Notes: generated from the sequence alone by a model not told the origin. A stretch of 64,000 bases of DNA from Pseudomonadota bacterium (GCA_043818055.1 JBDRGF010000060.1:516-64515), one strand, 5' to 3'; counted from the first letter of the stretch, positions 854-35,342 are shown. Numbers and translations: made by a program.

Positions 854-868
854 TGGCACAGTCATTGC
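854..868 (+). promoter_or_regulatory. sigma54 (-24/-12) promoter TGGCAC-N5-TTGC
   Basis: The sequence cTTGGCACagtcaTTGCTataat matches the RpoN consensus TGGCACG-N4-TTGCW. It lies about 100 bp upstream of the 966 ORF. Confidence 0.55.
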
Positions 869-924
869 TATAATGTATTTAAATGATATCTCAGGACCAT
901 AGATGAAACATTCCTCTTAAAGAT

Positions 925-956
925 AGATTGACACATATTTAAAATTGTGTCAATCT
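925..956. promoter_or_regulatory. perfect 10-bp inverted repeat (AGATTGACAC-N12-GTGTCAATCT), putative operator
   Basis: Seen directly. It sits between the sigma54 promoter and the start codon of the AbiEi-like gene. AbiEi antitoxins are known to autorepress through inverted repeats. Confidence 0.5.
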
Positions 957-965
957 ACATAAACT

Positions 966-1538
966 ATGACATCTATAAAAATCAATAGGTTACCCAAAAA
1001 GCCCTTTTCCTATCAGGAAGCACTTAAGACAGGCCTAACTGAACACGCGCTCAGAAAACTCCTAGAACAGGGTACTATTGAGCGTATAAGTCGAGGCGTT
1101 TATCAGCTCTCTGAACAATCTGAAGGCTCGGAAGATGACCAATATGCCGCTGCCACCCTTAGATGTGACCTTCCTTCAAGTGTGTGCCTTCTCTCTGCTC
1201 TGGATCATTATCATTTAACTGACCAAATCCCTAGAAAAACCTGGATGCTTGTGCCGGATTCGAAAAGAATCCGCGCAAATGAATTAAGGCTTATGCGATC
1301 CAGATCTCCGAAATGGGATATCGGTATTAAAAAAACAAAATCGTATTGGATCACTACAATTGAACGCACGCTCATTGATTGTCTTGTTTATAAGCAAATA
1401 GTTGGGTCTCAAGTAGCCCTATCAGCTCTTAAAAAAGCTGTCTCACAGAAAAAGATAAAACTTGGCAAACTTTATGATGTGGCAAAGAAAATGAAAGTTG
1501 AACATCGCATCAGATCATACATCGAGGCACTCACATAA
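966..1538 (+). CDS. AbiEi-like (type IV TA antitoxin family) DNA-binding regulator
   Basis: The N-terminus LRKLLEQGTIERISRGVYQL resembles the AbiEi_4 winged-helix domain; 190 aa. Confidence 0.55.
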   Translation: MTSIKINRLPKKPFSYQEALKTGLTEHALRKLLEQGTIERISRGVYQLSEQSEGSEDDQYAAATLRCDLPSSVCLLSALDHYHLTDQIPRKTWMLVPDSKRIRANELRLMRSRSPKWDIGIKKTKSYWITTIERTLIDCLVYKQIVGSQVALSALKKAVSQKKIKLGKLYDVAKKMKVEHRIRSYIEALT

Positions 1539-1685
1539 TGAATGGTGAAAAAGCAAAACAAATTCGCCGCTTTTCTCAGTGCAGCCTGGCCTGGAATAAG
1601 GGTAATAGGCGAAAAAATCGATTTTCAAAACGCTTGGAAGGAGCTTATCGAGAAACTTGATAAAATTGATAATATGTTCGTTTGA
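1538..1685 (+). pseudogene. short frame-disrupted remnant downstream of the AbiEi-like gene; possibly a decayed AbiEii-like partner
   Basis: ATG overlaps the AbiEi stop (TAATG). A 41-codon ORF is followed by an alternative-frame continuation (KIDFQNAWKELIEKLDKIDNMFV). No full-length gene is present. Confidence 0.2.
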
Positions 1686-1819
1686 CGAATAGCAATAAAC
1701 TCAGAGGGAGTTAAAATCAAACAGTGTGCTCGAGGCTTCACCTCTAAAAAACATTTGAAAACAAAACCAAATGAAGTATTATCCCCCAGCTTCGTTTAAT
1801 CTTTTAATAAGGAGAAAAA

Positions 1820-2170
1820 ATGAGACTATTTAAAGTAATGTTTGTTTTTGTTGTGTTAGCTGGTTTTTGTGTTGGTTGCAGTGGCGGCGACAAACCGAGT
1901 ATGCAAGGTTCTAAAAGTGACATGGGCGACTTCTTAAAGGATTATGAAAATTTTGTTGTAGATTACTGCGCAGATGGAGAAAAATTTAAATCTGCCTCCA
2001 TGTCAGAAAAAATGGCCTTTTCACAGAAGATGATGAAACATGCCGAAAAGATGACTGAGTACAATGCACTTCTTATGGGTTTCAAATCATCTGAGGACGA
2101 TGCTGCAAAAAAAAAGCTAGAAAAATTAGAAGCAAAACTTGAAAAATGCTCAGCATATTACGAGATGTAA
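1820..2170 (+). CDS. small lipoprotein (signal peptide with lipobox VGC)
   Basis: MRLFKVMFVFVVLAGFCVGCSGG; RBS AAGGAG upstream. Confidence 0.55.
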   Translation: MRLFKVMFVFVVLAGFCVGCSGGDKPSMQGSKSDMGDFLKDYENFVVDYCADGEKFKSASMSEKMAFSQKMMKHAEKMTEYNALLMGFKSSEDDAAKKKLEKLEAKLEKCSAYYEM

Positions 2171-2246
2171 GACAAAAATAAATCCAACGCCAATACCCCC
2201 GCTGAAAAAGCCTCTTGGGCGCTCGGGTTCGATCTCTTGTTTCCAC

Positions 2247-2276
2247 AAAAAAACCGCCAATCGGCGGTTTATTTTG
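2247..2276. terminator. bidirectional rho-independent terminator
   Basis: Hairpin CCGCCAATCGGCGG flanked by an A-run and a T-run, between the lipoprotein gene and the minus-strand tRNA-Ala. Confidence 0.6.
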
Positions 2277-2277
2277 T

Positions 2278-2350: not shown

Positions 2351-2443
2351 AAAAACCAGTTTGTAGTGCGTAGTGTTTAGTAAATTGATCCATCACCACA
2401 AACTAAGCACTTAGCACTACACACTAATCACTGCCTTATCCTG

Positions 2444-2517: not shown

Positions 2518-2562
2518 AAACACTAGGCACTAAACACTACACACTAATCACTGCTTTATTTG

Positions 2563-6371: not shown

Positions 6372-6375
6372 AAAA

Positions 6376-7511: not shown

Positions 7512-8618
7512 TCAGACCCTTTTTCCATTTTCAATTGTAAATATCTTCGGATCCATGCCGCTCCAGAGCTTTGGCGAGGAGGTGTCGGTCGTCGTAACCA
7601 GCACCTGCCCCTGTTCTGTAGATAGATAATCGAGCAAAAACCGGCTCCGCTCTTCGTCGAGCTCGCTCAACACATCATCGAGCAAGAGAAGCGGCAGATG
7701 TCCAAATCTCTTTTTATAAAGCTCCAGCTCCGATATCTTTAACGCAAGCATCGTCGTCCTCAACTGTCCCTGCGATCCGTATTCTTTGAGAGGTTTGGAG
7801 CCTATCTTCACCAATATATCATCCCTGTGAGGACCGACCAGTGTATAACCGCGAGCAACTTCATCCGCACGTCGCTCAATCAATCGTTCTGAAAAAAGAG
7901 AGGAGATGGTTTCAACATCTAAATTTTTAAAATCTCCTAATGCCGAAGCATATTCGATCGACGCCCTTCCATCAGACGGGGCGATTGCACTGTATTGAAC
8001 TGGCAGTTCAGAGTCGATCATCCCGACCCATGTTGCGCGATAAACTAGCACCTTTGACCCAACAGCTATGAGCCTCTGATCCCAGATATCCAGCTGATCT
8101 AATACAGATCTATTCTCAAAAGCATCTATCAGGATCCTGTTTCTCTGGCTTACGATCTTCTCATATTCCTTGAGCGTTCTACGATATCCCGTTTCAAAAC
8201 GAGCTATCAACGAATCGAGATAATTCCTGCGCGCTGATGGTGAGTTGCGAAGAAGAAGAATATCCTCAGGTGAAAAGATAACTGTGGCCGCCCCGTTGTA
8301 GAGGCTGTGCATCTTTCTCTTGCCGTTGACTTCAAAATATTTTTTCCCATCAATGATGTTGAGTTTTATAACATCGCCGCAACCATCGTAGCGCTCAACC
8401 TCTCCCTCAACGATCGTGCTAGCCTCTCCCCAAAATACAATCTCGTGAGGTCGCGAAGTGCGAAACGAATTCCCCTCGATAAGACAATTGATCGCTTCGA
8501 TGAGATTCGTCTTCCCCTGCGCATTTTTTCCCATGATGAGATTGACGCTCTCGGAGAGCTCAAACGACTCACAAGAAAAATTCCTAAAATTTCTAAGTTT
8601 TAGATTTTTTAAAAACAT
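7512..8618 (-). CDS. recF: DNA replication and repair protein RecF
   Basis: MFLKNLKLRNFRNF followed by P-loop GKNAQGKTNLIEAI. Start placed at the internal ATG (8618) rather than the GTG at 8633. Confidence 0.9.
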   Translation of the reverse strand: MFLKNLKLRNFRNFSCESFELSESVNLIMGKNAQGKTNLIEAINCLIEGNSFRTSRPHEIVFWGEASTIVEGEVERYDGCGDVIKLNIIDGKKYFEVNGKRKMHSLYNGAATVIFSPEDILLLRNSPSARRNYLDSLIARFETGYRRTLKEYEKIVSQRNRILIDAFENRSVLDQLDIWDQRLIAVGSKVLVYRATWVGMIDSELPVQYSAIAPSDGRASIEYASALGDFKNLDVETISSLFSERLIERRADEVARGYTLVGPHRDDILVKIGSKPLKEYGSQGQLRTTMLALKISELELYKKRFGHLPLLLLDDVLSELDEERSRFLLDYLSTEQGQVLVTTTDTSSPKLWSGMDPKIFTIENGKRV

Positions 8619-8627
8619 AAAAAGTAA

Positions 8628-8646
8628 GGGCACAGTTCATGTGCCC
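8628..8646. terminator. short hairpin GGGCACAgttcaTGTGCCC between dnaN and recF
   Basis: Seen directly. Confidence 0.3.
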
Positions 8647-8656
8647 TCCCTATGTA

Positions 8657-8690
8657 ACTTAAACACTTCTACACTTAAACACTCACGCAC
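8657..8690. repeat. ACTTAAACACTTCTACACTTAAACACT repeat, heptamer family
   Basis: Same words as at 20676-20696 and 58526-58562. Confidence 0.55.
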
Positions 8691-9794
8691 TTACAAGCGC
8701 ATCGGCATGATGATATGTGCAAACCCCTTATCTGTTTCGCTCCTGATAACGCACGGAGAGGTGTCATCCCCCAAATCGAATGTTATCTTTTCATCCGGAA
8801 GCACAGAAAGGGCGTCCAAAAAATACTTGCCGTTGAAGCCGACATCGAAGGTCTCTCCTTTATAATCGACCTCGAGCATATCCCGGGCTTCGCCCATATC
8901 CGGATTGGAGGAGAGAAGCTCCAGATTTTTGGGTGAAAAGGTGAACTTCACCCCTCTCCCTCGCTCCATGGCCAGAACGGAGACAAGCTTCAAGGATTTG
9001 CATATAGCGTCCTTTGAAACGGTCGCCTTTTTCCGGGCAGTCTTGGGAATAACCTGTGAATATGGAGGGAACTGACCATCTATCAGTCTGATTATCAACT
9101 CAACTCCTTCATATCTGGCAACCGCATATTTTTCCGAAACCAGAAGATCTACACTCTCAGAATCCTCCAGAATTTTTTTAAGCTCACTCACCCCCTTCTT
9201 CGGTATGATGACCCCCGTCCTGGTCCCTATATCCCATTTCACAGGTATGTTTCGCTCCACTATCGAAAGACGGTGTCCATCCGTAGCGACCATCTTCAAT
9301 CCATCTGTTGTCTGTTCGAAGAGCACACCATTCAGATTGTATCTCGTCTCATCTGTGGACATTGCAAAGGCAGTTTTATCGAGCATCTCCTTCAGATCGT
9401 TTGAATGTATGCTCTGAAACTCTCCCTTTCCAACCTTAGGAAGGGCAGGAAAATCAGTCGAGGTCAGTCCCATGATCTTGAACTTGGCATCGCCACAGGT
9501 GATTTTGATGGAATAGTCGGAACCGACTTCAACTGTAATAAGAGATTCCGGAAGTTCCTTTATTATATCATAAAAACTGCGCGCATGAATGGTAACGCTC
9601 CCCTCTCTTAACACCTCAGCAGGAAGCGAGTACTTCATCCCGATTTCTAAATCGGTCGCAGTGAGAGTTAAGCTTTTGCCGGAGGCATTGATGAGAATAT
9701 TTGCCAATATAGGCATTGTCGTCTTTCTCTCAACTATACTTTGAAGCTTTGCCAATCCCTTTACGAGTTCATTTCTTTTAACTTTTAATTCCAT
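8691..9794 (-). CDS. dnaN: DNA polymerase III beta sliding clamp
   Basis: 367 aa, N-terminus MELKVKRNEL; located between dnaA and recF. Confidence 0.9.
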   Translation of the reverse strand: MELKVKRNELVKGLAKLQSIVERKTTMPILANILINASGKSLTLTATDLEIGMKYSLPAEVLREGSVTIHARSFYDIIKELPESLITVEVGSDYSIKITCGDAKFKIMGLTSTDFPALPKVGKGEFQSIHSNDLKEMLDKTAFAMSTDETRYNLNGVLFEQTTDGLKMVATDGHRLSIVERNIPVKWDIGTRTGVIIPKKGVSELKKILEDSESVDLLVSEKYAVARYEGVELIIRLIDGQFPPYSQVIPKTARKKATVSKDAICKSLKLVSVLAMERGRGVKFTFSPKNLELLSSNPDMGEARDMLEVDYKGETFDVGFNGKYFLDALSVLPDEKITFDLGDDTSPCVIRSETDKGFAHIIMPMRL

Positions 9795-10043
9795 TTGGTG
9801 GCTCCTTATCTTTATAATATAATATATAAATATAAATAGTAGTAGTAACAGGCCCTGTTGATACTGTTGATAACTGACTCAAAGCCCTGTCTATTAGATG
9901 TCCCCCTGGTTTAATAACATGTTCATAACTAAAAAAAACTATTAATAAGATTTAATAACTTTTTAATCTCATCTTTCTTCGATCGAGAATATGTGATTAT
10001 AAACTTTGTATCAACAGCTTTTCCACAGCAGCCTGTGGAAAAA
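9795..10043. other. dnaA-dnaN intergenic AT-rich region with degenerate DnaA-box-like 9-mers; candidate oriC/DUE
   Basis: Tandem TGTTGATAC and TGTTGATAA at 9856-9873. Palindromic TTTTCCACA (10010-10018) and TGTGGAAAA (10026-10034). AT-rich stretch at 9805-9840. Confidence 0.4.
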
Positions 10044-11381
10044 TCAAACCTCGAGAGAGCCTTCGATTTTAGAAATATCTATCTTCAACTCCTCGGAGCT
10101 TTGAAGCAGCCGCTCAATTTTTTTACAGGCATGCATAACCGTTGTGTGATCCTTTCCACCGAAATTTGTTCCTATCTCAGGAAAAGAGGTCTTTAATAAT
10201 TTTTTAGTGAGGTACATAGCTATCTGTCTTGGATAGGCCAAAACCTTAGTTCTACATGTGGATTTTAAATCTGCCACAGAGATGCTGTAAAAGTTGGCGA
10301 CGGTTCGTTGAATATCGCCGATTGTTATCTTTACCTTATTTTGGAATGGAATCAGGTTTTGAAGCACCTCTTTTGCAAAATCGACAGTGATCTTTGCCCC
10401 CGTCAACGAGGCAAAGGCATTTAATCTGATGAGGGATCCTTCCAACTCTCTAACGTTGTTTTTGATATTGGTTGCCAGATACATCGCTACATCGCCGGGA
10501 CATCTCAAACTGTCCGCCTCTGCCTTTTTCTGTAATATGGCTATTCTAGTCTCAAGATCAGGAGGTGCAATATCAGCGATGAGTCCCCATTCAAACCTCG
10601 ACCTCAAACGCTCCTCAAGTCCCCGGATCTCCTTTGGGAATCTATCAGACGTTATCACTATCTGTCTTTGTGATTCGTGAAGCGCGTTGAAGGTGTGGAA
10701 GAACTCATCCTGGGTCCGCTCCTTTCCAGCGATGAATTGTACGTCATCTATGAGCAGGACGTGACATTTATCACGGAACTTTTTTCTAAACTCCGGCATC
10801 CTTTCGAACCTGATTGAGGTGATCAGCTCGTTCATGAAGCGCTCGCCGGAAAGATATAGCACAGCGATGTCCGGGTATTTTTTCCTGACTTCTATTCCTA
10901 TTGCATTGAGAAGATGTGTTTTTCCGAGCCCCACTCCGCCGTAGATGAAGAGCGGGTTATAGCGCCCACCTGGGAGATCGGCCACAGCCTTGCATGCTGC
11001 GTGGGCGAATTGATTGGAGCTTCCAACCACAAAGCTTTCGAAGGTTAAACGTGAGATGAGACCCGAGGAGTTAATCTGATCCCTCATCGCTTGAGACTGA
11101 GGAACGAAGATCTCCCGATTGATTGGCTGAGCCTCTTCGGGCGCAGCACTGATCTCGTAGGTGACGCGAAGATTCTTTCCTGTGATATCCTTGAGCGTCT
11201 GGGATACAAGATCCCTATAAAAATCGTTGATCCAGTCACCTACAAACTTATTGGGAATCAAAATTACAAACTTATCCCCAGAAATCGTCACATCCTCGAT
11301 TTGATTAAACCATGTGTTGTAGTTTAACTCGCTGATTTTACACTTTATTTTAGACTTTAAGGAAGAAAGTAATTCGTTCAT
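10044..11381 (-). CDS. dnaA: chromosomal replication initiator DnaA
   Basis: AAA+ Walker A GGVGLGKTHLLNAIG; C-terminal DNA-binding domain; 445 aa. Confidence 0.95.
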   Translation of the reverse strand: MNELLSSLKSKIKCKISELNYNTWFNQIEDVTISGDKFVILIPNKFVGDWINDFYRDLVSQTLKDITGKNLRVTYEISAAPEEAQPINREIFVPQSQAMRDQINSSGLISRLTFESFVVGSSNQFAHAACKAVADLPGGRYNPLFIYGGVGLGKTHLLNAIGIEVRKKYPDIAVLYLSGERFMNELITSIRFERMPEFRKKFRDKCHVLLIDDVQFIAGKERTQDEFFHTFNALHESQRQIVITSDRFPKEIRGLEERLRSRFEWGLIADIAPPDLETRIAILQKKAEADSLRCPGDVAMYLATNIKNNVRELEGSLIRLNAFASLTGAKITVDFAKEVLQNLIPFQNKVKITIGDIQRTVANFYSISVADLKSTCRTKVLAYPRQIAMYLTKKLLKTSFPEIGTNFGGKDHTTVMHACKKIERLLQSSEELKIDISKIEGSLEV

Positions 11382-11387
11382 AAAATG

Positions 11388-11408
11388 TTATCCACATATT
11401 TATCCACA
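11388..11408. promoter_or_regulatory. two perfect DnaA boxes TTATCCACA (11388-11396 and 11400-11408)
   Basis: Exact consensus 9-mers immediately upstream of the dnaA start. Confidence 0.75.
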
Positions 11409-11520
11409 GGTGTTGATAAGCAAAGTTGATATTGTTCATAAATCAGTTGCCATTTAGGATTGCAAGCAAATTTTATTAAGAGATACGTATTAAAAGAATA
11501 AGCTTGACTTTAAAGGCAGT

Positions 11521-11670
11521 TTATAGTGCTTAGTGCAAAGTGTTTAGTGACGGGAAAGAAAACTAACGTATTGAATTTAATGAGAAAAGCAGGTTAAGGT
11601 GTCCGGTGTTATGGGTAGGGATAAAAGTTGTAAAACTAAGCACTAAGCACTAAGCACTATACACTAAAAA
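11521..11670. repeat. inverted arrays of heptamer repeats (TAGTGCT x4, then ACTAAGC x3 plus degenerate units) flanking a 75-bp spacer
   Basis: Seen directly, upstream of rpmH and within the dnaA-rpmH intergenic region. Confidence 0.55.
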
Positions 11671-11692
11671 CTGTTTTTAACGAGGTTTAATC

Positions 11693-11827
11693 ATGAAGAG
11701 AACGTTTCAGCCAAGCAACATCAAGATGAAGAGAAAACATGGCTTTAGGGCAAGGATGAGCACTGCCGGTGGGCGCAAGGTTATCAACAACAGGCGCCGC
11801 AAGGGAAGGGCAAAGCTTTCTGCTTAA
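11693..11827 (+). CDS. rpmH: 50S ribosomal protein L34
   Basis: Manual translation [44 protein letters not shown] (44 aa). The ORF is too short to appear in the ORF track. Confidence 0.9.
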
Positions 11828-11835
11828 AGGGGGCT

Positions 11836-12195
11836 ATGCTTACCTTTTCCCGCTGTGATAGGGTGTTGTCCTCCTCGGATTTCCTGAAGGTTAAAAAGAC
11901 AGGCGTCTCAATATCAAGTGGAAAACTAAAGATCGCATTTCTCAAAGGCAAGAGCAAAAGACTGGGTACGGTTGTCGGCAAAAGTTGCGGCAGCGCCCCA
12001 AAGAGAAACAGGATAAAAAGGATTGTAAGGGAACACTTTCGTCTGAACCGGGATCTCTATCCACAAGGAGATGTAGTTGTGATAGCGATGTCGGGCGCGC
12101 AAAGCCAGACCAACGAGGAGTTAAGGGCAACGCTCTTTAAGGGTTTGTTGTTGTTATCGGCAAAAAGAGAGAAGGCCTCTTGTTTAAAAGAATAG
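11836..12195 (+). CDS. rnpA: ribonuclease P protein component
   Basis: 119 aa basic protein immediately after rpmH; conserved arrangement. Confidence 0.85.
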   Translation: MLTFSRCDRVLSSSDFLKVKKTGVSISSGKLKIAFLKGKSKRLGTVVGKSCGSAPKRNRIKRIVREHFRLNRDLYPQGDVVVIAMSGAQSQTNEELRATLFKGLLLLSAKREKASCLKE

Positions 12196-12413
12196 CAGTG
12201 ATGATGATAAGGTTTTATCAGCTTTCCATCTCTCCCTTTATGGGTGGTTGCTGTCGGTTTTATCCAAGCTGTTCTCATTACGCGCTCATCGCATACGAAA
12301 AAAGAGGTTTTGTTGAGGCAACAATTTTAGTAATAAAGAGGCTCTTAAGGTGTGGGCCGTGGCATGATGGGGGCGTTGATTTTTTAGCCACAGAAAATAA
12401 TAAAAATAATTGA
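12180..12413 (+). CDS. yidD: membrane protein insertion efficiency factor YidD
   Basis: YQLSISPFMGGCCRFYPSCSHYA motif. Confidence 0.85.
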   Translation: MFKRIAVMMIRFYQLSISPFMGGCCRFYPSCSHYALIAYEKRGFVEATILVIKRLLRCGPWHDGGVDFLATENNKNN

Positions 12414-12464
12414 TTTAGCAACATTCACAGGAAAGTTGCGATAATAGATGAAAAGAGGAGAGTT

Positions 12465-14150
12465 ATGGGTGATCACAAAAGAATAATTTTACTGGTCGTT
12501 TTAAGTGCCGTTGTTATGTTTGCCTGGTCGCATTTTTTCAAGCCAGCGCCAGTGAGTGATACGAAAACACCCGCAGCCCAGCAGGTTGTAGAACAATCTA
12601 AAGAGATGCCGGTAGAGAGCGCCGCTACGATAAAATCACAGGGAGCATTTGATCCACAGAAGGAGATTCCCATCACAGAGGTTGTTATAGAAAACGCACT
12701 CTATGCTGTGACGATATCTTCTGAGGGGGCTCTCCCGACAAGCTTTAAACTCAAAAATTACAGGGTGGAGGCAGGTGATAAAAGCCCACTTTTGGACTTA
12801 GCTAAAACGAAGAATCAGGAAACCCTTGCAATGGCGCTTTTTTCTCTTGGTGATGTGGGAATACCAGAAAAGCCGAGGTTTAAAGTTGTTTCATCGACGA
12901 CCGACGAAGCGACATTCAGCTGGAGGAATTCGAAGATAGAGCTGATCAAGAGATATAAGTTTAAAGAGGGAAACTACCTCTTCGATGTGGAAGCCGAGGT
13001 GAAAAATCTCACATCGAGTCCTATAGTTGTTAATCCCTCTATGACGTTTGCAGGAGATGCCTATCCAAAAGAATCATCCGGAATACTTGGCATGTTTAAA
13101 CAACCTCCTGTGACAAATGAAAATCCCGTTTACTCTCTCAACAGAAAGGTTGAGAGGGAGACGAATGTTTTCAAGCTTCCCGATGAAAAGGCCTTCACAG
13201 GCGCTATCTCCTGGGCAGGCTTAGAGGATCGCTATTTCATGACGACCGTGATTCCCCGCACAATCACCGATTCTGAAAAGCTCATCATCAGCAGTCGTGA
13301 CATTCCTGATGGAGAGAAACCCGGCAAGCTCATCACCGCCTCCCTTTCGAACGCGGGCGTTCAAATTCCAGGAAGTGGGTCAAAGACTTTTGCATATAGC
13401 GTCTACGCCGGCCCTAAAGATATCGATCTTTTGAAAGCGGTCGGTGTCGGGCTGGAAAGCGCGATCGATTTCGGCTGGTTTTCACTTATAGCGGTTCCGA
13501 TACTTTATCTACTGAGATTTTTCTACACGCTGGTCGATAGCTGGGGCATCTCGATCATCCTTCTCACGATTTTTATCAAAATAGTTTTATATCCTATCAC
13601 GAAAAAATCGATGAAGTCGATGAAGGCGATGCAGAAGTTGCAGCCGCAACTTAAGGAGCTGCAAAAGAAGTATAAGGGTGACAAGAAGAAGATCCAGGAG
13701 GAGACGATGCGGCTCTTCCAGACCCACAAGGCAAACCCGATGGGTGGATGTCTGCCGATGCTTCTGCAGTTTCCGATCTACATAGCTCTTTATAAAGTGC
13801 TGTGGAATTCAACCGAGCTCTATCACGTTCCATTTTTATATTACCCCGACCTGTCAGCCTCAGATCCATATTTCATCACTCCGGTATTGATGGGAGTCTT
13901 CATGTTCCTGCAACAGAGGATGATGCCATCGACGAGTGCTGATCCTACGCAGCAGAAGATGATGATGATCATGCCGGTCATGTTCACGGTCTTCATGCTC
14001 TTCCTGCCGGTGGGTCTCGTGCTCTATATCCTGATCAGCACCGCAGCAGGAGTAATTCAGCAGGTGATGTACAATAACAACATCCGCGTCAGAGATCTCG
14101 TCAGAGGCAAAGTGAGCTGGAAGAAGTTTTTAGGAAAGAGCCTGGCGTAA
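12465..14150 (+). CDS. yidC: membrane protein insertase YidC
   Basis: 561 aa; periplasmic domain followed by a 5-TM C-terminal domain. Confidence 0.9.
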   Translation: MGDHKRIILLVVLSAVVMFAWSHFFKPAPVSDTKTPAAQQVVEQSKEMPVESAATIKSQGAFDPQKEIPITEVVIENALYAVTISSEGALPTSFKLKNYRVEAGDKSPLLDLAKTKNQETLAMALFSLGDVGIPEKPRFKVVSSTTDEATFSWRNSKIELIKRYKFKEGNYLFDVEAEVKNLTSSPIVVNPSMTFAGDAYPKESSGILGMFKQPPVTNENPVYSLNRKVERETNVFKLPDEKAFTGAISWAGLEDRYFMTTVIPRTITDSEKLIISSRDIPDGEKPGKLITASLSNAGVQIPGSGSKTFAYSVYAGPKDIDLLKAVGVGLESAIDFGWFSLIAVPILYLLRFFYTLVDSWGISIILLTIFIKIVLYPITKKSMKSMKAMQKLQPQLKELQKKYKGDKKKIQEETMRLFQTHKANPMGGCLPMLLQFPIYIALYKVLWNSTELYHVPFLYYPDLSASDPYFITPVLMGVFMFLQQRMMPSTSADPTQQKMMMIMPVMFTVFMLFLPVGLVLYILISTAAGVIQQVMYNNNIRVRDLVRGKVSWKKFLGKSLA

Positions 14151-20615: not shown

Positions 20616-20696
20616 TAAGTGTAGAAGTGTTTGAGTATAGAAGTTACAATAAAAATAGGTTTTGTTAACTTAAACACTCAAACACTTCTACACTTA
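20616..20696. repeat. 21-bp perfect inverted repeat (TAAGTGTAGAAGTGTTTGAGT / ACTCAAACACTTCTACACTTA) with a 39-nt spacer, between the HK and RR genes
   Basis: Seen directly; the arms belong to the heptamer repeat family. Confidence 0.6.
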
Positions 20697-22388
20697 CGCA
20701 CTGGGTATCGCAAGCGATACCCTGAACGTTGTTCCCTCTCCTATCTTTGAACTCACGTCGATCTTTCCGCCGTGTTTGCTTACGATCTGATGGGATATAG
20801 ATAAGCCCAAGCCGATACCCTCTCCCTGATCCTTTGTCGTGAAGAATGGATCGAAGATCTTCGGCAATATATTCTCTGGGATGCCTCTTCCTGAATCCTT
20901 TATTTCAACACAAACATTTCCCTCTTCTGCAGAGGTCTTTATCCAGATGTCCCCTTCGCCATCGATCGCGTCGATCGAATTTTTTAGTATGTTCATCCAG
21001 ACCTGATTTATCTGGCCGGCATTTGCCGATATTTTGGGGAGGTTTCTGAACTCCTTGTGCACGCTGATCCTCTCGTTCGTCTCATGCTTTAAGAGATGAA
21101 TGGTGCTCTCGATCCCCTCGACAAGATCAACATCAGCAACGACATCGTCGGTCGAGTGGGCGAAGTGTCTAAGATCGGCAACGATCTCTTTGGTACGAAT
21201 TGCCCCCTCTTCTATATTTGAGATCATCGACTTGAGATCTGCAATCACCTCGTGCGAGGCCATCTCATCTTTGTATTTTGGGGCGTCGAATGGCACGATC
21301 GTCTCAAGATAGGCGGTATAATTTTTCAGAGGTTCGATGTTTGAATATATAAAAGTTGTCGGATTGTTTATCTCATGGGCAACGCCGGCGACGAGCTGAC
21401 CAAGGGATGCCATCTTCTCAGACTGCACGAGTTGCAACTGCGTCTTTTTCAGGTTGCCGAGGACGAGTCCGAAGAGAGAGGCTATGGGAAGCAGGATGGT
21501 GACAGGCGCTACGAGATTGAGCGGCATTTTCATCCTGAAGAGAAAAATCGCGATCATAACGGTGAGCGGCACCATGAAGGCGAGCAGCTGACCGATCAGC
21601 AGATATTTTGCGGTTATGTTTGCAAATGCCCTGTCGGCATTGTTCATCCTCCATCCGAGCATCAAGAGCCAGAAGAGGTAGGATAGAACTGCATATATCA
21701 CGGCTAAGATCTCAAATGTTGGCCAGCTGGTCGGATAGAAATAGAATGATACGCAGTAAGGGATGTAGATCATCGCGGATAGAAGATACGGGAGCGCGAC
21801 GATCCAGCGCTTCTTTTCAAATTGCCTCGGAAGGGTTGGATAGACAAGCGCAAAATGGGTCATGAATGCAGGGATGAGCGTGAAGACAGCCATGAATAAC
21901 CAACTCGCGGTGTAACGTGTATGCAGATCGAAGGAGCTTATCATGTAAAAGGAAATTCCCAGATAGAAGAGGGTGAAGGGCAACGCACCTTGCATGCCAC
22001 GGAAGAGAAAATAGATGACGCATCCGGATATTAAAAAGAGGATTCCGGTTGAAAAGCTCAGGAAAAAGGTCTTGAGGAAATCGCTTATTGTGAACGTCAT
22101 AGGTGCAATCGTTGCGAAGCGCACCTTGTCGCCGCTCGTTATGATATATCGATCCTCGCCGATTTTATTTATATGATCATGATAGGTCAAACCCGCATCG
22201 TAACCGGTCCAGTTGAACTGGTTGAACGCACCGACTATTTTGTTCTCAAAGGTGAGAAAGCCCGGAAAGGGCTCGCTGATCATCGACTTAGCGCTTCTGA
22301 AGAAATAGATAGAGAGCAATATAAGAAGGCAGGATATAATTAATACGGCTAACGAATTGATATTTTTCATCTTCATCAGTTTTATCAT
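20694..22388 (-). CDS. sensor histidine kinase with an N-terminal 7TM receptor region
   Basis: Multiple TM helices; H-box HEINNPTTFI; HATPase GIGLGLSISHQIV. Confidence 0.85.
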   Translation of the reverse strand: MIKLMKMKNINSLAVLIISCLLILLSIYFFRSAKSMISEPFPGFLTFENKIVGAFNQFNWTGYDAGLTYHDHINKIGEDRYIITSGDKVRFATIAPMTFTISDFLKTFFLSFSTGILFLISGCVIYFLFRGMQGALPFTLFYLGISFYMISSFDLHTRYTASWLFMAVFTLIPAFMTHFALVYPTLPRQFEKKRWIVALPYLLSAMIYIPYCVSFYFYPTSWPTFEILAVIYAVLSYLFWLLMLGWRMNNADRAFANITAKYLLIGQLLAFMVPLTVMIAIFLFRMKMPLNLVAPVTILLPIASLFGLVLGNLKKTQLQLVQSEKMASLGQLVAGVAHEINNPTTFIYSNIEPLKNYTAYLETIVPFDAPKYKDEMASHEVIADLKSMISNIEEGAIRTKEIVADLRHFAHSTDDVVADVDLVEGIESTIHLLKHETNERISVHKEFRNLPKISANAGQINQVWMNILKNSIDAIDGEGDIWIKTSAEEGNVCVEIKDSGRGIPENILPKIFDPFFTTKDQGEGIGLGLSISHQIVSKHGGKIDVSSKIGEGTTFRVSLAIPSA

Positions 22389-22412
22389 TATATAGATGCA
22401 ATTTCCAATTCA

Positions 22413-22460
22413 CAATACCCAATTAACAATTTCTATAAGGAAGGGGTTAATTGGGTATTG
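22413..22460. promoter_or_regulatory. 15-bp perfect inverted repeat CAATACCCAATTAAC-N18-GTTAATTGGGTATTG upstream of the HK-RR operon
   Basis: Seen directly; followed by direct repeats ATTGGATATTG. Confidence 0.45.
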
Positions 22461-22546
22461 GATATTGTAAATTGGATATTGATTATATCAGTAGCAGCAC
22501 CATATAAATTACACTCAAGGCTATATAGATGATTACTTTTTTCATC

Positions 22547-23344
22547 TCACTCCCCCTTCTTGGGCGCCGCGCAGCTTATGTTGTAATTGCTGTTATTAAA
22601 GGATTCTCCTGAGATTGTGCAGAATATGGTTTCCCCTCCCGATTTGAGATGGAGCGTTCCGGTGAATGACTCGGTTTGTTTTTGCGATGCGGTCGAGAGG
22701 CTTCCCTCGAACGTGATATCAAATACCATCGCAGCTCCCTTGCTACCGGAGAGGCTTAAAGCACCGGTGATCTTCTCCCATACAGTCATCTCAACAGAAT
22801 CGTTGCTGTTTATGTAAGTATTGCTCAACATGGAATCACACATCGCATCAAATCCCTTGAGAATCTTTGTCTGGGACTCCTGTTTGACAACGCCTGTCAT
22901 GATGATCTTTTCGGAACTATATGAGTTGAGAATTTTGTAATTCCCAAAATCAGCGGAGATTAAGCCGATGAGATTTGCGCTGTCCCCGTCTGTTTTTTTG
23001 AGATCCACATCTCCCGAAAGCATAACATCTCCATAGTAATATTTGTCTTTGAACGTCTCGTCGATGTTGAGTGTAGCGCTTCCCCCCTGACAGAGCTGGT
23101 TTATCAATTGAATTTGAGAGCCGACATCATTTTGCTTCGACATGGCATCGTTGAATTTGTTTTGAACTTCATTAAACACAGGAGAAAAATAATTTTTGAT
23201 CTGGCTTGTTGAAGAGAGAAGGATGGGAGCCCCATCTCCCTCTTCGACATCGGCGATGTTCGCATTCTCAGTTGATGGAGCCGAACCACATGCGTTCAAG
23301 GTTGCGAGGATGACAAATGCTATTGATAGATATGTTTTTTTCAT
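22547..23344 (-). CDS. lipoprotein, hypothetical
   Basis: Start moved to the internal ATG, giving MKKTYLSIAFVILATLNACGS (lipobox), with an RBS. Confidence 0.5.
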   Translation of the reverse strand: MKKTYLSIAFVILATLNACGSAPSTENANIADVEEGDGAPILLSSTSQIKNYFSPVFNEVQNKFNDAMSKQNDVGSQIQLINQLCQGGSATLNIDETFKDKYYYGDVMLSGDVDLKKTDGDSANLIGLISADFGNYKILNSYSSEKIIMTGVVKQESQTKILKGFDAMCDSMLSNTYINSNDSVEMTVWEKITGALSLSGSKGAAMVFDITFEGSLSTASQKQTESFTGTLHLKSGGETIFCTISGESFNNSNYNISCAAPKKGE

Positions 23345-23363: not shown

Positions 23364-23975
23364 TTATGGTTGATTGTTGTTTGCACCACAGGCGATGCCA
23401 TCTCTTGCAAGAATGTCTGACGTAATTTGAATGAATTCAAATGTGCAGCTAAAGCCGCTCGTTTCGAAACATTCCCCCTCGATCACAAAATGCTCCACAC
23501 CGTTTATATATTTTCTTCCTATTCTGGCTTCGCAGGATGTGACGGTATCGCCAAACCTGAACAGGTCGTAGTCCTTCACATTGGAATAGTCGTTGAACGG
23601 ATAAAAGGTCAGCTTATCATTATTGTCTTCATCAATCAGCCAGACGAGATTATTGTGCGCGCTATAATCACACTGGTTGATAACATCCTTCGAGCATTGA
23701 TTATAGACGACTTCATATGTTCCAATTGGGGAGTTCAGTTTTTTTGGAAAGTTGGTTTCGTCAACATCGCTATCACGAGAATCGCTCTCAACCGGTAGTG
23801 TTGCCGGCACAATTGATGGAGGCGGATCGTCTCTTTGTTGGAAAACAACATAATCATTATCAGGCGGATCTGTGAAGATACATTCACCATCCTTGTCACA
23901 TACATCACCACATCCACTTGCTATCAACAACAGCGCCACTCCGATTAACAGCTTTGTAACTCTTTTTACTCTCAT
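23364..23975 (-). CDS. lipoprotein, hypothetical, Asp/Cys-rich
   Basis: Start moved to MRVKRVTKLLIGVALLLIASGCG (lipobox); RBS AGGAGG. Confidence 0.5.
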   Translation of the reverse strand: MRVKRVTKLLIGVALLLIASGCGDVCDKDGECIFTDPPDNDYVVFQQRDDPPPSIVPATLPVESDSRDSDVDETNFPKKLNSPIGTYEVVYNQCSKDVINQCDYSAHNNLVWLIDEDNNDKLTFYPFNDYSNVKDYDLFRFGDTVTSCEARIGRKYINGVEHFVIEGECFETSGFSCTFEFIQITSDILARDGIACGANNNQP

Positions 23976-24245
23976 CCTCTCCTCCTTGGTTGTTGGTTTC
24001 ACCCCATGTAAAAGCAATGCCCGTGCCAATGAGGTCGAGAAATAATAATCAACAATATCAACAGGTTATGTTTTTAGCGATTTTTTAGGATCATGCAATT
24101 TAACGAAAATTAACCAAACATAGCCAATTCCAACCTCCGGGGTTGGAGGTGATCGGTTGATTGCAAAGGCGTGAATGGAAGGTTGTTTAGTAAGGAGTAA
24201 TTATGCCCTCTTGATGAGTCAATCCCAAACTTAGTTGATATTTTG

Positions 24246-25595
24246 AAAAGCGGTTCGGTTAACATTTTAAGCAGCCTCATCAGCAATTTTTCGATTCAGC
24301 TTCAATTCATTTTTCAAAGCCATTCTCAGTTCATGCAGATGTCGATATCCACTGATTCGATTTAACCTGGGTTCAACATCCAGTAACGTAGCAGCTAACC
24401 ATCTTTGTCTCTGTGATGAGTTCTGCCAATAATCAACTTTTCCACAGCGTTGTTCGATCATTGCATTGATCGATTCTATACAGTTGGTTGTCTTTAGGCT
24501 TCTTCCCAGCTTTGTAAAAAGACCTAAACGATGTAATGTTAATGTCTCCTCAAACCCTTCATCCAAACTTCTTACTGCTGATAAATTTCTTTTCTCTAAA
24601 TCGTTCCGGATTTTTAAAAGTGACGCCTTAGCCTCTGAGTAAGTTGGCCGTTCATAAGCTCTCTGTAATTGTCTCCTTACTAAGGGCTGTTCCTCTTTTG
24701 ACAAATAATCCACTACGTTCTCGCGCTTATGCCATTGACATCGCTGGATTAAACTCTTTCCTTTGAAAGCTCTTTTTATCCCGGAATTCAACCCTTTAGA
24801 CCCATCCACGATTACTAATATCCCTTCTTCAATCGACATCCCACGTTTCAATAACTCATTCAGAAAATCTATAGTAACATGATTGTTCTCCGTTGCTGTT
24901 TCTATAAACCCCAGTATAATTTTACACCCCTCTATTGTCAGTCCAACAGCTACTATCAAATCATTCTTTGAAAATGTTTTCCCGTCAATCCACATTGCCA
25001 CAAAATCATAACAGCTCAAATCCCGCTCCTGAAGCTCTCTGAGCTTCTCCTGGCTAACTTTTACAAATTGTCGTGATACACTCGAAGACGATAATCCAAA
25101 TGCTTCCGGTACTGCCATTGCTGCTGACTCATAATCCCGACACGATATACCTTTCAATATCCGATTCATTGCCATCTCTTCCATCGAATGGGCTCCATTA
25201 TGCAATCGACTGTAACTCTTGAGAACTGTTTCACTCTTCATCCTTTTATCCCGAACGCGTGGAACACCTATTCCTATTCGCTGTCCCCCCAAAACTACAG
25301 ACCCTGGGTTGGTCCCATACCGGACGTAATCCCCACGACTATATCGCTCTCCTGCCAGTTGTCGCACTTCCTCTTGCAATTCCTCTTGTACCTTCATTAA
25401 CCCTAATGGTATCAGCTGCTCGATTAGCTCCAGTCGACTATCAAGCTTTAGCCCTTCATATTCGTCTATTTTTATTACTCGCGCTTTTTTCCTGTACTTT
25501 TTTCTTATCCCTTGTACTCTTTTCATGGCGGTTCCTCCTTTATTTGTTGGTAATTTTGACCTCACATCTTAATTACCAAAGTTGGAACCGCTTTT
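24246..25595. mobile_element. IS256-family insertion sequence (about 1.35 kb)
   Basis: Mutator-type transposase; imperfect terminal inverted repeats sharing GAACCGCTTTT at both ends. Confidence 0.7.
24267..25526 (-). CDS. IS256-family transposase
   Basis: Conserved MWIDGK, CQWHKRENV and NCIESINA blocks; start at MKRVQG with an AAGGAGG RBS. Confidence 0.85.
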   Translation of the reverse strand: MKRVQGIRKKYRKKARVIKIDEYEGLKLDSRLELIEQLIPLGLMKVQEELQEEVRQLAGERYSRGDYVRYGTNPGSVVLGGQRIGIGVPRVRDKRMKSETVLKSYSRLHNGAHSMEEMAMNRILKGISCRDYESAAMAVPEAFGLSSSSVSRQFVKVSQEKLRELQERDLSCYDFVAMWIDGKTFSKNDLIVAVGLTIEGCKIILGFIETATENNHVTIDFLNELLKRGMSIEEGILVIVDGSKGLNSGIKRAFKGKSLIQRCQWHKRENVVDYLSKEEQPLVRRQLQRAYERPTYSEAKASLLKIRNDLEKRNLSAVRSLDEGFEETLTLHRLGLFTKLGRSLKTTNCIESINAMIEQRCGKVDYWQNSSQRQRWLAATLLDVEPRLNRISGYRHLHELRMALKNELKLNRKIADEAA

Positions 25596-25689: not shown

Positions 25690-26535
25690 ATGAGGGATGA
25701 GGTTAATCACTGCGTAAGACCTGACGATCCTGATCCGTTTGTAGGAGCGATAAAGGGCTCGATTTGCTGGAGTCGTTCTATGGAAGAAATTTATTTTTCT
25801 TGGAATGGTCCACTCGATGGAGATGTCAGTTTAGCAAATCTTAACACTTTTCGAAAACCCTTCTTTGCCGGTTGGCAGTTTTGCATGCTTTTAGGGGCCT
25901 ATATAGTTTATAATCATGATTATTGTGAGGAGCGTCCTCTTGCAACTCCGTATGAAGCAGAGGGGAACGGCCTGATGGGCAGACGAAAAACGACAAGTCT
26001 CTATCAAAATTTATTAAATGATTTTGAGATATTCATTTTATCAAGCAGTAGCTGCATAGCCGCCCTCTCCCCCATATGGAATGCTACTCTAAATCCAAAT
26101 TCGATCGCGAAAATGTCCGCTATTAATTATATTAGCCGCAACCATAGCTTAGGAGTGCTCGATGAGGGAGATAAGGTTGAATTTGGCAAGCTCTCCCTTT
26201 ATAGATATGGCGAGATCGTTGGAAGGGTTGAGGGGCGCGACGGGAAGGCGATCGTTATCGTGGGAAAGTGTCAGGCCCAGGAAGGAACGCTTGTTCCTGT
26301 TACTGTGGAAACAAAGAGTGGTAGATTTCAAGGTGAGGAACTGCATCCTGGAGATGAATTTGAAGTCACTGAGCCGACAATATTTTCACAAAAGGCACAC
26401 GCTTATATGAAGAAAACCAACATTGCTATAGTAGAACCAATAAATCCCGAACTTCCTGAGGTCAACCAAGAAGAATTTGATCAAATTCGCAGTTTAACGG
26501 GTTGGGACGAAGATGAACCATGTAATTTAGGCTAA
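25690..26535 (+). CDS. hypothetical protein
   Basis: ORF only; it begins about 95 bp from the IS end. Confidence 0.35.
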   Translation: MRDEVNHCVRPDDPDPFVGAIKGSICWSRSMEEIYFSWNGPLDGDVSLANLNTFRKPFFAGWQFCMLLGAYIVYNHDYCEERPLATPYEAEGNGLMGRRKTTSLYQNLLNDFEIFILSSSSCIAALSPIWNATLNPNSIAKMSAINYISRNHSLGVLDEGDKVEFGKLSLYRYGEIVGRVEGRDGKAIVIVGKCQAQEGTLVPVTVETKSGRFQGEELHPGDEFEVTEPTIFSQKAHAYMKKTNIAIVEPINPELPEVNQEEFDQIRSLTGWDEDEPCNLG

Positions 26536-26595: not shown

Positions 26596-26610
26596 TGGCA
26601 CGCATCTTGC
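26596..26610 (+). promoter_or_regulatory. sigma54 promoter TGGCACgcatcTTGC
   Basis: Perfect -24/-12 elements, 26 bp upstream of the 26636 ORF. Confidence 0.55.
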
Positions 26611-26635: not shown

Positions 26636-26884
26636 ATGAAAAAATCAAATACACTGGAATTCATAGAGATGTTATTGACGGAGGGCTGGGGGGAGCTCTC
26701 CTGTAGCAATCCGATCGTCCTGTCGTGTGGCGGTATCTATATTCCCCCAAGAAAGAAGTTCAATGCGAGATATTCGTATGATCTTCTGACTACCGCAAAT
26801 GGCTTAGAGCCTGTGAAGGTAGTCCCTGAAAAGCCGCTGAGAAACATGCTGAAAGTGGTTTTAGAGAAGGAATCGCTGAACTAG
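26636..26884 (+). CDS. small hypothetical protein (82 aa), sigma54-driven
   Basis: RBS GAGGG; no motif recognised. Confidence 0.4.
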   Translation: MKKSNTLEFIEMLLTEGWGELSCSNPIVLSCGGIYIPPRKKFNARYSYDLLTTANGLEPVKVVPEKPLRNMLKVVLEKESLN

Positions 26885-26921
26885 CGGCTTAAACTTGAAA
26901 TTTTGTCTCTCCTTAATACTG

Positions 26922-26985
26922 GCCCGCTGACAAGAAGTTGTTGGCGGGCCGATTTTTCAACACCCGGTGTTGAAAAATGGGGCCT
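26922..26985. terminator. tandem hairpins (GGCCCGC...GCGGGCC and TTTTTCAACACCCGGTGTTGAAAAA); convergent terminator
   Basis: Seen directly, between the 26636 ORF and mtnA. Confidence 0.55.
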
Positions 26986-33225: not shown

Positions 33226-33267
33226 ATTTATAAAAATGCTTGACCATGCTCCATAAATGGCGTACAT

Positions 33268-34443
33268 TTGTGGAGTATGTTCCATAGACTACTTAACCCG
33301 CTTAAATCTAATAGTTTTTTTATATTTGGTGCAAGAGGCACCGGTAAAACCACATTTCTAAAGAGTTTTTTTTCAAACATCAAGACTATCTGGATAGATT
33401 TATTAGATCCGACAGTGGAAGATAATTACTCCCGCCGGCCAAATCTACTTGGCCAACAGATAGAGGCAGTTTTGGGAGATATCGAATGGGTTGTTATAGA
33501 TGAGATTCAAAAGACCCCAAAACTTTTAAACCTGGTTCATAAGTATATTGAAGAATATAATATTAAATTTGCTCTTACGGGATCCAGTGCAAGAAAACTT
33601 AAAAGAGGCTCAGCTAATCTGCTAGCTGGCAGAGCATTTATGAATTATCTTTTTCCGCTCACGCATGTAGAGATGGGAGAATTTTTTGACTTAGGATCTG
33701 CCTTGCAGTGGGGAACATTGCCAAAGGCAGTTCTTTTAAATAGTCCTGAAGAAAAGAAAGCATTTTTGGATGCATATGCACTTACTTATTTAAAGGAGGA
33801 AATCTGGGGGGAACATATCATCAGAGAGCTCGATCCATTCAGAAGATTTTTGGAGATTGCGGCTCAGATGAATGGGGAGGTGATTAATTATACAAATATT
33901 GGGAAAGATGTCGGCGCTGATACAAAGACCATACAATCCTATTTTGAGATATTAGAGGATACACTTATAGGGACATTGTTAGAACCATTCCATTTATCCA
34001 TTCGGAAAAGACAGAGAAAGAATCCAAAGTTTTATTTCTTTGATACAGGGGTCTCGAGAGCTCTGGAAAAAACTCTGCTTCAACCTCTTTTGCCGAACAC
34101 CTTTTCCTTCGGAAAAACTTTTGAGCACTTTATTATATCAGAGGCGCATAGGTTGAATGTATATCATAATCTTGATTTTCAGTTTTCATATTTAAGAACT
34201 AAAGAGGATGCGGAAATCGATCTTATCATTGAGAGGAGAGGCATGCCCACAGCCCTTGTCGAGATCAAGTCAACAGACTCCATCGATGAAAGACACACAA
34301 GAACTCTTGAGCTGTTTTTGAAAGATTTAAAAAATGCCCAGGGTTACTGTTTTTCAAGAGATCCCATTCGCAAAAAAATAGGTCATGTCAACGTCCTCCC
34401 TTGGCAGGAAGGTTTAAAGCAAGTAGGGCTTTTGGGGAAATAA
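33268..34443 (+). CDS. AAA-family ATPase with a DUF4143-type C-terminal domain
   Basis: P-loop GARGTGKTT; COG1373 architecture; this is where AT-rich composition begins. Confidence 0.7.
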   Translation: MWSMFHRLLNPLKSNSFFIFGARGTGKTTFLKSFFSNIKTIWIDLLDPTVEDNYSRRPNLLGQQIEAVLGDIEWVVIDEIQKTPKLLNLVHKYIEEYNIKFALTGSSARKLKRGSANLLAGRAFMNYLFPLTHVEMGEFFDLGSALQWGTLPKAVLLNSPEEKKAFLDAYALTYLKEEIWGEHIIRELDPFRRFLEIAAQMNGEVINYTNIGKDVGADTKTIQSYFEILEDTLIGTLLEPFHLSIRKRQRKNPKFYFFDTGVSRALEKTLLQPLLPNTFSFGKTFEHFIISEAHRLNVYHNLDFQFSYLRTKEDAEIDLIIERRGMPTALVEIKSTDSIDERHTRTLELFLKDLKNAQGYCFSRDPIRKKIGHVNVLPWQEGLKQVGLLGK

Positions 34444-34489
34444 TAAGAACATGTTGGGAATCAAAGAAACACATGGTATTGGTAGATAA

Positions 34490-35035
34490 TTACAAATACC
34501 AGCCCAAGTGAAGATAACCTATAGGTGCATAAAAATTAGTTCCACCGATTCTGTGGTAACCAAAGCTTATCTCTGGTGAAAGAACAAAATGTTTTGTCAT
34601 TCTAAATTCATATCCTGCACCAGTACTGAAGCCAAAACCCATTTTTGTATCCATTTGGGCGCCTCGGTCATTATACCGGGCATCTGAAAAACCAACGCCT
34701 GCGTTTGCATAAAAATTATTCCACAAAAAGACCTGGGTCTTTGCCTGTCCTGAGAGAAGCATCATTGTCCTCATTTCTCCACCAATTTTACGCCTGGTGA
34801 AGAGGCTGGAATCATCATAATAAAGAGATATTTTTTCATTGAACGCATAGCCGATTCTAAAACCAAGACCACCTGCAACCATCTTTATATGATTTGTTTC
34901 TGTTCCTACCATGGGACCGAATCCAATTAAGAACCCCTTTCTATTTGCAAACTCTTTATCCTCAGCACTTGCCGCATTGATAATGACAAAAGAAAAAATG
35001 AGAAGTGATAAACCCAAAATGAACGTTTTACGCAT
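34490..35035 (-). CDS. small outer-membrane beta-barrel protein (OmpW/OmpA-like)
   Basis: Signal peptide, alternating amphipathic strands, aromatic C-terminus. Confidence 0.55.
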   Translation of the reverse strand: MRKTFILGLSLLIFSFVIINAASAEDKEFANRKGFLIGFGPMVGTETNHIKMVAGGLGFRIGYAFNEKISLYYDDSSLFTRRKIGGEMRTMMLLSGQAKTQVFLWNNFYANAGVGFSDARYNDRGAQMDTKMGFGFSTGAGYEFRMTKHFVLSPEISFGYHRIGGTNFYAPIGYLHLGWYL

Positions 35036-35084
35036 ATGGATCTCCTTTTAAGGTATTAATGAATGTGATTTGTAGCATATTAGC

Positions 35085-35096
35085 GGGGGGGGGGGG
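35085..35096. repeat. G12 homopolymer tract about 50 bp upstream of the OMP start codon
   Basis: Counted directly: 12 consecutive G. Confidence 0.9.
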
Positions 35097-35223
35097 CAAT
35101 AAAAAAATTGATAGTTTGTTAGGGGCATCTTGCTTTAAGATCTATAGGAGAGGCTGTGTTTTTACCACATACCACATGCGCTTTTTTAAGGTCAATTTTC
35201 ATATCAATATCAATTTTTAACAT

Positions 35224-35259
35224 TGTCCGGACTGTAGTCTAGGATTCCGGACATTTTTT
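35224..35259 (+). terminator. hairpin TGTCCGGA...TCCGGACA plus T6
   Basis: Seen directly. It follows a 14-codon ORF (35179-35223); this may be a small transcript upstream of the cluster promoter. Confidence 0.35.
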
Positions 35260-35327
35260 GTTCATATCAAAATTACACCAAACATCAAAACTCTGATATA
35301 TCAACAAGTTATCCTCCTTAATAATCT

Positions 35328-35342
35328 TGGCACAACAATTGC
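35328..35342 (+). promoter_or_regulatory. sigma54 promoter TGGCACaacaaTTGC driving the AT-rich cluster
   Basis: cTTGGCACAacaATTGCTATA is nearly identical to the promoter at 854; it lies 76 bp upstream of the GTG at 35418. Confidence 0.6.

Follow-up and report, generated by a model that had tools for sequence, protein, structure and literature searches.

Four consensus sigma-54 promoter elements in a 64-kb stretch of a Pseudomonadota bacterium: one regulon or several?

A 64,000-nt stretch of DNA from a Pseudomonadota bacterium (GCA_043818055.1, JBDRGF010000060.1:516-64515; hereafter the window) carries repeated perfect matches to TGGCAC-N5-TTGC, the -24/-12 element of sigma-54 promoters. Are these matches promoters and, if so, do they answer to one activator? 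A sequence-only reading had counted three such elements and grouped them into a small regulon, with an NtrC-type regulator encoded in the same window as the candidate activator. We located four exact matches, which, judged by their sequence and by their placement on a gene map built from Pfam, NCBIfam and PADLOC scans and a tRNA finder, are very probably genuine sigma-54 promoters. We hold with moderate confidence that they are four independent canonical promoters, probably under separate control: site 4 by the local regulator, and sites 2 and 3 by activators encoded outside the window.

Number and placement of the sigma-54 elements

Exact matches to TGGCAC-N5-TTGC were found on the plus strand at 854-868 (site 1, TGGCACAGTCATTGC), 26596-26610 (site 2, TGGCACGCATCTTGC) and 35328-35342 (site 3, TGGCACAACAATTGC), and on the minus strand at 24014-24028 (site 4, TGGCACGGGCATTGC), with predicted transcription starts near 880, 26622, 35354 and 24002, respectively. 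The three plus-strand elements had been reported before and are confirmed; the fourth, on the other strand, had been missed. Only 0.08 matches were expected in the window, so that four represent a 50-fold excess, and none of 100 dinucleotide shuffles of the window gave as many. All four sites share the fuller context TTGGCAC-N5-TTGCT, with exactly 10 nt separating GG from GC. Weighted scoring of all GG-N10-GC matches in the window gave them 15.7-16.2 out of a maximum of 16.2, and the runner-up, at 14.0, was intragenic. Allowing one mismatch added three further matches, each intragenic, a number equal to the chance expectation. A weaker site at 63794-63813 (minus strand) was likewise intragenic and was therefore dismissed as a promoter.

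The placement of the four sites was equally regular. Each is intergenic and faces a co-oriented gene, with 26-98 nt between the C at -12 and the start codon, and at sites 2, 3 and 4 a ribosome-binding site (RBS) lies between promoter and start codon. By our own gene map of the window, strand-positions that are intergenic and have a co-oriented start no more than 150 nt downstream make up 3.25% of the window, and these contain all four sites (0.0325^4 ~ 1e-6). The excess of the motif over expectation, the gap in scores and the small share of eligible positions together place the four sites beyond chance.

The matches could nonetheless be compositional hits in AT-rich intergenic DNA. This reading would be in keeping with the scans of the window's open reading frames (ORFs) against Pfam, NCBIfam and PADLOC, in which no Sigma54 factor domain, and thus no rpoN, was detected, and with the TATAAT that directly follows TTGC at sites 1 and 2. 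Nor did our homologue comparisons find orthologous loci with these promoters, so that there is no phylogenetic footprint. We nevertheless consider a chance origin highly improbable, given the 50-fold excess, the score gap, the correct placement and orientation in four of four cases, the chance-level number of one-mismatch sites and the presence of a sigma-54 activator gene in the window. From this intact activator, we infer that the genome probably carries rpoN; a relative, Bdellovibrio bacteriovorus, has an rpoN-like gene (PMC3464611).

The similarity among the sites ends at the consensus. Sites 1 and 3 do share an extended core, CTTGGCACA-N3-ATTGCTATA, as had been observed, which on sequence comparison is the known extended sigma-54 consensus (YTGGCACG-N4-TTGCW) and not a sign of special kinship. 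Over 70 nt on either side, the flanks of the four sites resembled each other no more than shuffled sequences do; of 12 pairs, one (site 1 versus site 2, upstream) reached p=0.03, which was not significant after correction. We therefore rejected the idea that the promoters are copies of one repeat or cassette.

The two-component locus at site 4 and the question of a shared activator

Site 4 is the most coherent of the four and alone among them is physically linked to the locus of an activator. Reading along the minus strand, TTGGCACGGGCATTGCT (site 4) is followed by a leader of ~27 nt with the RBS AAGGAGGAG and an ATG at 23975, by two genes for lipoprotein-like proteins, and then by the genes for a sensor kinase and its response regulator. 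The first lipoprotein-like gene (23364-23975) encodes a Cys-rich product; the second lies at 22547-23344. Their lipoboxes read LIASGC and LNAC, and neither protein matched a Pfam or NCBIfam family. The kinase (20694-22388) combines HisKA and HATPase domains with a multi-pass region of about seven transmembrane segments (7TM), seven strongly hydrophobic segments being present in residues 1-310. The regulator (19203-20603) is of the NtrC type, with Response_reg, Sigma54_activat (E=5e-70), AAA_lid_14 and HTH_8 domains, the Walker A motif GETGTGKE and the loop motif GSFTGA, a conservative variant of GAFTGA. The pairing of an NtrC-family activator with a 7TM sensor kinase, already recognized in the sequence-only reading, is thus borne out by the domains and the hydrophobic segments, and the regulator is the only sigma-54 activator of the NtrC class in the window. 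Its nearest relative among species representatives is 64% identical and comes from a Pseudobdellovibrionaceae metagenome-assembled genome, on a 5.7-kb contig without the promoter. When metagenomes were scanned with the kinase, the matches were confined to the kinase domain, apart from one short contig from the same organism; this organism is also represented in JGI metagenome 3300014656.

Upstream of site 4, at a distance of 101-119 nt, lies the perfect palindrome TCCAACC-N5-GGTTGGA (24129-24147), a candidate enhancer (upstream activating sequence), of which no second copy and no relative within three mismatches was found elsewhere in the window. The arrangement suggests that site 4 heads a self-activating two-component locus: the regulator would most likely bind this palindrome and activate its own locus from site 4, in a positive feedback. 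Transcription from site 4 could plausibly run on into the genes for the kinase and the regulator, as no terminator-like site was detected in the gaps among the lipoprotein, kinase and regulator genes, and their co-transcription would follow from it. The gap between the second lipoprotein-like gene and the kinase gene (22389-22546, minus strand) also holds a 20-codon hydrophobic mini-ORF (MKKVIIYIALSVIYMVLLLI) and an inverted repeat with 12-bp arms (CAATACCCAATT...AATTGGGTATTG, 22413-22460), and a sigma-70-like promoter in it abuts the kinase start.

The locus resembles canonical sigma-54/NtrC systems, such as glnAp2 with ntrBC and the enhancer-binding protein regulons of Desulfovibrio vulgaris (PMC4641369), in its TGGCAC-N5-TTGC core, its REC/AAA+/HTH_8 activator with a partner kinase, the promoter ahead of the activator's own locus and the palindromes ~100-140 bp upstream of the predicted start. 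It differs from them in that the ~7TM kinase is uncharacterised and is preceded by two lipoprotein genes without a family match, in that the candidate enhancer is unlike the NtrC site, and in that no orthologous locus was found, the nearest activator being 64% identical.

Does this regulator also serve the other three sites? Enhancers sit at least 100 bp upstream of their promoters and carry a motif particular to their activator (PMC4641369), so that a common activator would be expected to leave a common upstream site. The shared upstream activator sequence that the sequence-only reading proposed to look for did not emerge from k-mer, seed-motif or palindrome searches: shared k-mers upstream of the four sites were at chance level, and a seed-based motif search yielded no common word or dyad, performing no better than on shuffles. 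Sites 2, 3 and 4 do each have a perfect inverted repeat at an enhancer-like distance, with its centre 90-116 nt upstream of the element. For a pre-set span of -160 to -60, finding such repeats at three or more of the four sites has a probability of 0.009 against the whole-window background, intergenic DNA being richer in inverted repeats. These repeats are mutually unrelated and each is unique in the window; those near sites 1-3 have no relatives within three mismatches elsewhere in it. As enhancers are activator-specific, different palindromes at enhancer distance fit separate activators better than a single one.

A single regulon under the 7TM kinase and its NtrC-type regulator has several points in its favour. 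No other sigma-54 activator is encoded in the window, and site 4 heads this regulator's locus; site 2 is just 2.5 kb from site 4 and would be the adjacent, divergently oriented unit but for the IS256-family insertion (24267-25565); and 80 other loci centred on activators yielded 21 exact matches, a lower density than four perfect sites in 64 kb. Set against this are the upstream searches, which stayed at shuffle level, the site-4 palindrome without a relative in the window, the functionally unrelated target genes and the fact that the site-1 element is specific to one gene copy. We therefore consider a single regulon quite unlikely, and the earlier grouping is not supported: what the sites have in common is the universal consensus. 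The proposal of the NtrC-type regulator as activator stands to the extent that it is encoded nearby and has site 4 at its own locus; its control of all the sites is unsupported.

Separate control of four independent promoters, which we prefer, would work as follows. Sigma-54 RNA polymerase would bind each TTGGCAC-N5-TTGCT as a closed complex, and transcription would begin ~12 nt downstream only once an AAA+ enhancer-binding protein, placed ~100-140 bp upstream, remodels that complex. Sites 2 and 3 would most likely be served by other activators encoded beyond the window, site 2 driving an orphan gene for 82 amino acids and site 3 an acquired low-GC operon for a D-alanine or peptide-ligase product and its exporter. 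Site 1, too, probably answers to an activator other than the local regulator. We infer sigma-54 binding, the identity of the enhancers and the pairing of activators with promoters from these patterns.

Several observations weigh against this picture. The search for a shared enhancer was made on four sequences and had low power, so that a degenerate common site could have escaped it. The palindromes could serve as terminators or operators instead: the one at site 4 lies downstream of the IS256 transposase gene, and the repeat at site 3 is followed by a T-run, which would suit an upstream terminator or insulator. Within the site-4 locus, the gaps between lipoprotein and kinase genes (158 nt) and between kinase and regulator genes (90 nt) are long and contain long inverted repeats, with the sigma-70-like promoter before the kinase gene, and co-transcription of kinase and regulator from site 4 is for these reasons not assured.

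Site 1 and the decayed AbiE module

The element at site 1 precedes a gene of the AbiE toxin-antitoxin family, with a leader of ~86 nt between the predicted start and the start codon. The gene, abiEi (966-1538, plus strand), encodes a full-length AbiEi-family winged-helix regulator or antitoxin of 190 amino acids, matched by PADLOC (E=1e-39 over residues 13-190) and by Pfam AbiEi_4 and DUF6577, and lying under the NCBIfam equivalog cut-off. The toxin gene that adjoins it has decayed. Only a remnant of ~50 codons is left (1538-1688, plus strand), in which the codons for toxin residues 1-11 run directly, in another frame, into those for residues ~245-285, ~230 middle residues being deleted. Four homologous loci (68-74% identity) carry an intact AbiEii of 285-292 amino acids that overlaps the end of abiEi. 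A further copy from the same metagenome (L149), with an abiEi that is 86% identical, has abiEii truncated likewise (L149 1136-1282). Since the same type of truncation occurs in this second copy, the pattern of a lost toxin and a retained antitoxin or regulator looks recurrent or inherited.

Directly before the start codon, abiEi has retained what appears to be the promoter-operator of its family (925-956, plus strand). Its two 11-bp arms match perfectly, AGATTGACACA-N10-TGTGTCAATCT, and within it are a TTGACA -35 hexamer and the extended -10 element TGtCAATCT. An inverted repeat TTGACAC-N12-GTGTCA occupies this position in all seven distinct abiEi loci compared, and in the window and L149 the arms reach AGATTGACAC/GTGTCAAT; no further copy of the operator was found in the window. 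We predict that this is the autoregulatory operator of the AbiEi family, as abiE is autoregulated through inverted repeats in its own promoter (PMC3985639, PMC7319586). The type IV AbiE system of Streptococcus agalactiae, described in the same studies, similarly has a full-length AbiEi preceded by an inverted-repeat operator, which overlaps a sigma-70 promoter just ahead of the start codon, whereas here the toxin gene is a frameshifted remnant with no working toxin adjoining, and an extra sigma-54/sigma-70 promoter lies upstream.

This extra promoter is confined to the window's copy of abiEi. The site-1 element and the ~75-nt segment that holds it (842-916, plus strand), bordered on both sides by TTAAAG, are missing in L149 and in the four homologues. 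The same segment contains a sigma-70-type promoter (845-874, plus strand; TTCACA, an 18-nt spacer, TATAAT and an extended -10 TG; 11 of 12 positions) that runs over the sigma-54 element, and both would start transcription near 880. No overlapping sigma-70 match of this kind was found at sites 2-4. The earlier remark that a sigma-54 promoter on an antitoxin gene is unusual accordingly needs qualifying: the toxin has decayed, the sigma-70 promoter-operator of the family is kept, and the element is copy-specific and overlapped by a sigma-70 promoter.

Sigma-54 at site 1 would either add an inducible, activator-dependent input or occlude the sigma-70 promoter. It is also possible, if rather less likely, that the overlapping sigma-70 promoter is the functional one and that the sigma-54 match is fortuitous or acts as a roadblock repressing the upstream abiEi transcript. 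The exact overlap with an 11/12 promoter bearing an extended TG points that way and tells against a canonical sigma-54 promoter at this site, as does the lack of a palindrome at -60 to -160, the nearest being at -179 or beyond. Occlusion of overlapping sigma-70 promoters by sigma-54 has moreover been demonstrated in E. coli, where some such promoters are repressed in this way (Schaefer et al. 2015, PMC4551910). On the other hand, a ten-out-of-ten sigma-54 core is improbable by chance (0.08 per window) and would not be created by a sigma-70 spacer, and the two mechanisms can coexist. Like the class I/II occlusion sites of E. coli (PMC4551910), site 1 has a consensus -24/-12 element with its C at -12 inside the footprint of strong -35 and -10 elements; it differs from them in that both elements are near-consensus and would share a start, and in that the 75-nt segment on which they lie is specific to this copy and precedes another promoter, predicted to be autoregulated.

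A more far-reaching reading is that the toxin-less AbiEi has been kept as a free-standing regulator and was rewired by the 75-nt segment, which would place a sigma-54/sigma-70 dual promoter upstream of its autoregulated one, while site 2 would define a sigma-54-dependent single-gene unit for a homologue-less protein of 82 amino acids. We regard this combination as unlikely. If it were true, expression of a former phage-defence regulator would answer the signal of an enhancer-binding protein or be gated by sigma-54 occlusion.

Sites 2 and 3 and their surroundings

Site 2 would drive an orphan ORF for 82 amino acids (26636-26884, plus strand) preceded by the RBS GAGGG, which sits in a small hairpin 3' of the predicted start. 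The ORF resembles real genes in its codon usage, with a score of 0.18 compared with 0.07 for the 95th percentile of antisense frames. A search of 5.8 billion proteins with its product returned only the protein itself, and a single-sequence structure model was uninformative (predicted local distance difference test, pLDDT, of 41). An intrinsic terminator, a strong hairpin followed by the U-tract GATTTTTC (26921-26950, plus strand), closes the single-gene unit. We also considered site 2 as the promoter of a small RNA; no Rfam match was found, and the RBS and gene-like codon usage led us to prefer a protein-coding unit. The candidate enhancer of site 2 is a perfect 16-bp palindrome, GAATTTGATCAAATTC (26473-26488), 108-123 nt upstream of the element and within the preceding orphan ORF. 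This adjoining orphan gene (25690-26535; 281/251 amino acids) returned only itself in a search of 1.84 billion representatives. The IS256/Mutator-family transposase gene (24267-25565, minus strand) lies between the site-4 locus and these orphan genes; the ends of the insertion sequence are approximate, near 24237 and 25656, where candidate terminal repeats were found with no matching target-site duplication.

At site 3, the leader contains the RBS GGAGGA (35408-35413) and leads to a GTG start at 35418 (plus strand). The candidate enhancer is the inverted repeat TGTCCGGA-N14-TCCGGACA (35224-35253), 75-104 nt upstream of the element. Downstream extend eight co-directional, tightly spaced genes that form an operon (35418-44234, plus strand) with a GC content of ~35%, compared with ~45% in the flanks. 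They encode a RaSEA-like radical S-adenosylmethionine (SAM) enzyme, an alanine racemase, an ATP-binding cassette (ABC) ATPase, two ABC-2 permeases, a PaaK-like adenylating ligase, a RimK-type ATP-grasp enzyme and a second ATP-grasp-like protein. The first gene product, though bacterial, belongs to the archaeosine RaSEA radical-SAM family, just above the TIGR01210/RaSEA cut-off, and its best homologue is 48% identical. A 41%-identical relative (L153) belongs to the nearest RaSEA-like cluster, a different, high-GC one that also includes a RimK gene, and no sigma-54 element was found in that cluster. The operon is of the peptide-ligase/exporter type and was probably acquired; it may specify an uncharacterised pathway based on peptide or amino-acid ligases.

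According to Francke et al. (2011, PMC3162934; see also PMC12316311), sigma-54 regulons have the outside of the cell as their main theme, and several of the predicted targets conform to it, including the lipoproteins, the alanine racemase and ATP-grasp ligases, and the ABC-2 exporter, whereas the orphan, cytoplasmic-looking 82-residue protein and the orphan antitoxin do not fit it. If confirmed, the four sites would provide a first map of how sigma-54 acts in a lineage that is uncultured. They would include a self-activating module of a ~7TM kinase and an NtrC-type regulator with two family-less lipoproteins, an acquired peptide-ligase/exporter operon under enhancer-dependent control and a natural case in which consensus promoter elements for sigma-54 and sigma-70 lie on top of each other. 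Current understanding of sigma-54 is left unchanged, as this would be ordinary sigma-54 regulation with local details; the chief value of the analysis is in correcting the claim of a single regulon.

Some further features of the window were recorded alongside these loci. Upstream of site 3, a G12 homopolymer (35085-35096) lies ~50 nt upstream of the start of an outer-membrane beta-barrel gene (34490-35035, minus strand) and is a candidate tract for slipped-strand phase variation. The AAA_14/DUF4143 ATPase gene at 33268-34443 (plus strand) matches the PADLOC candidate defence family PDC-S01 (E=8e-58), and similar genes also occur near the AbiE locus in another contig (L147). Three tRNA genes are located at 2276-2634, and the neighbourhood of the chromosomal replication origin at 7512-14150, with recF, dnaN and dnaA on the minus strand and rnpA and yidC on the plus strand; the gap at 11382-11835 is the likely position of oriC. 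Finally, four copies of the 18-mer GTGTAGAAGTGTTTGAGT are present (0.02 expected), at 8657-8674, 20676-20693 and 58543-58560 on the minus strand and at 20619-20636 on the plus strand. It is always found between co-directional minus-strand genes, just past the upstream stop codon (dnaN|recF, kinase|regulator, where it forms an inverted pair, and hisS|aspS), and looks like a repetitive extragenic palindromic (REP)-like intergenic repeat or an RNA element.

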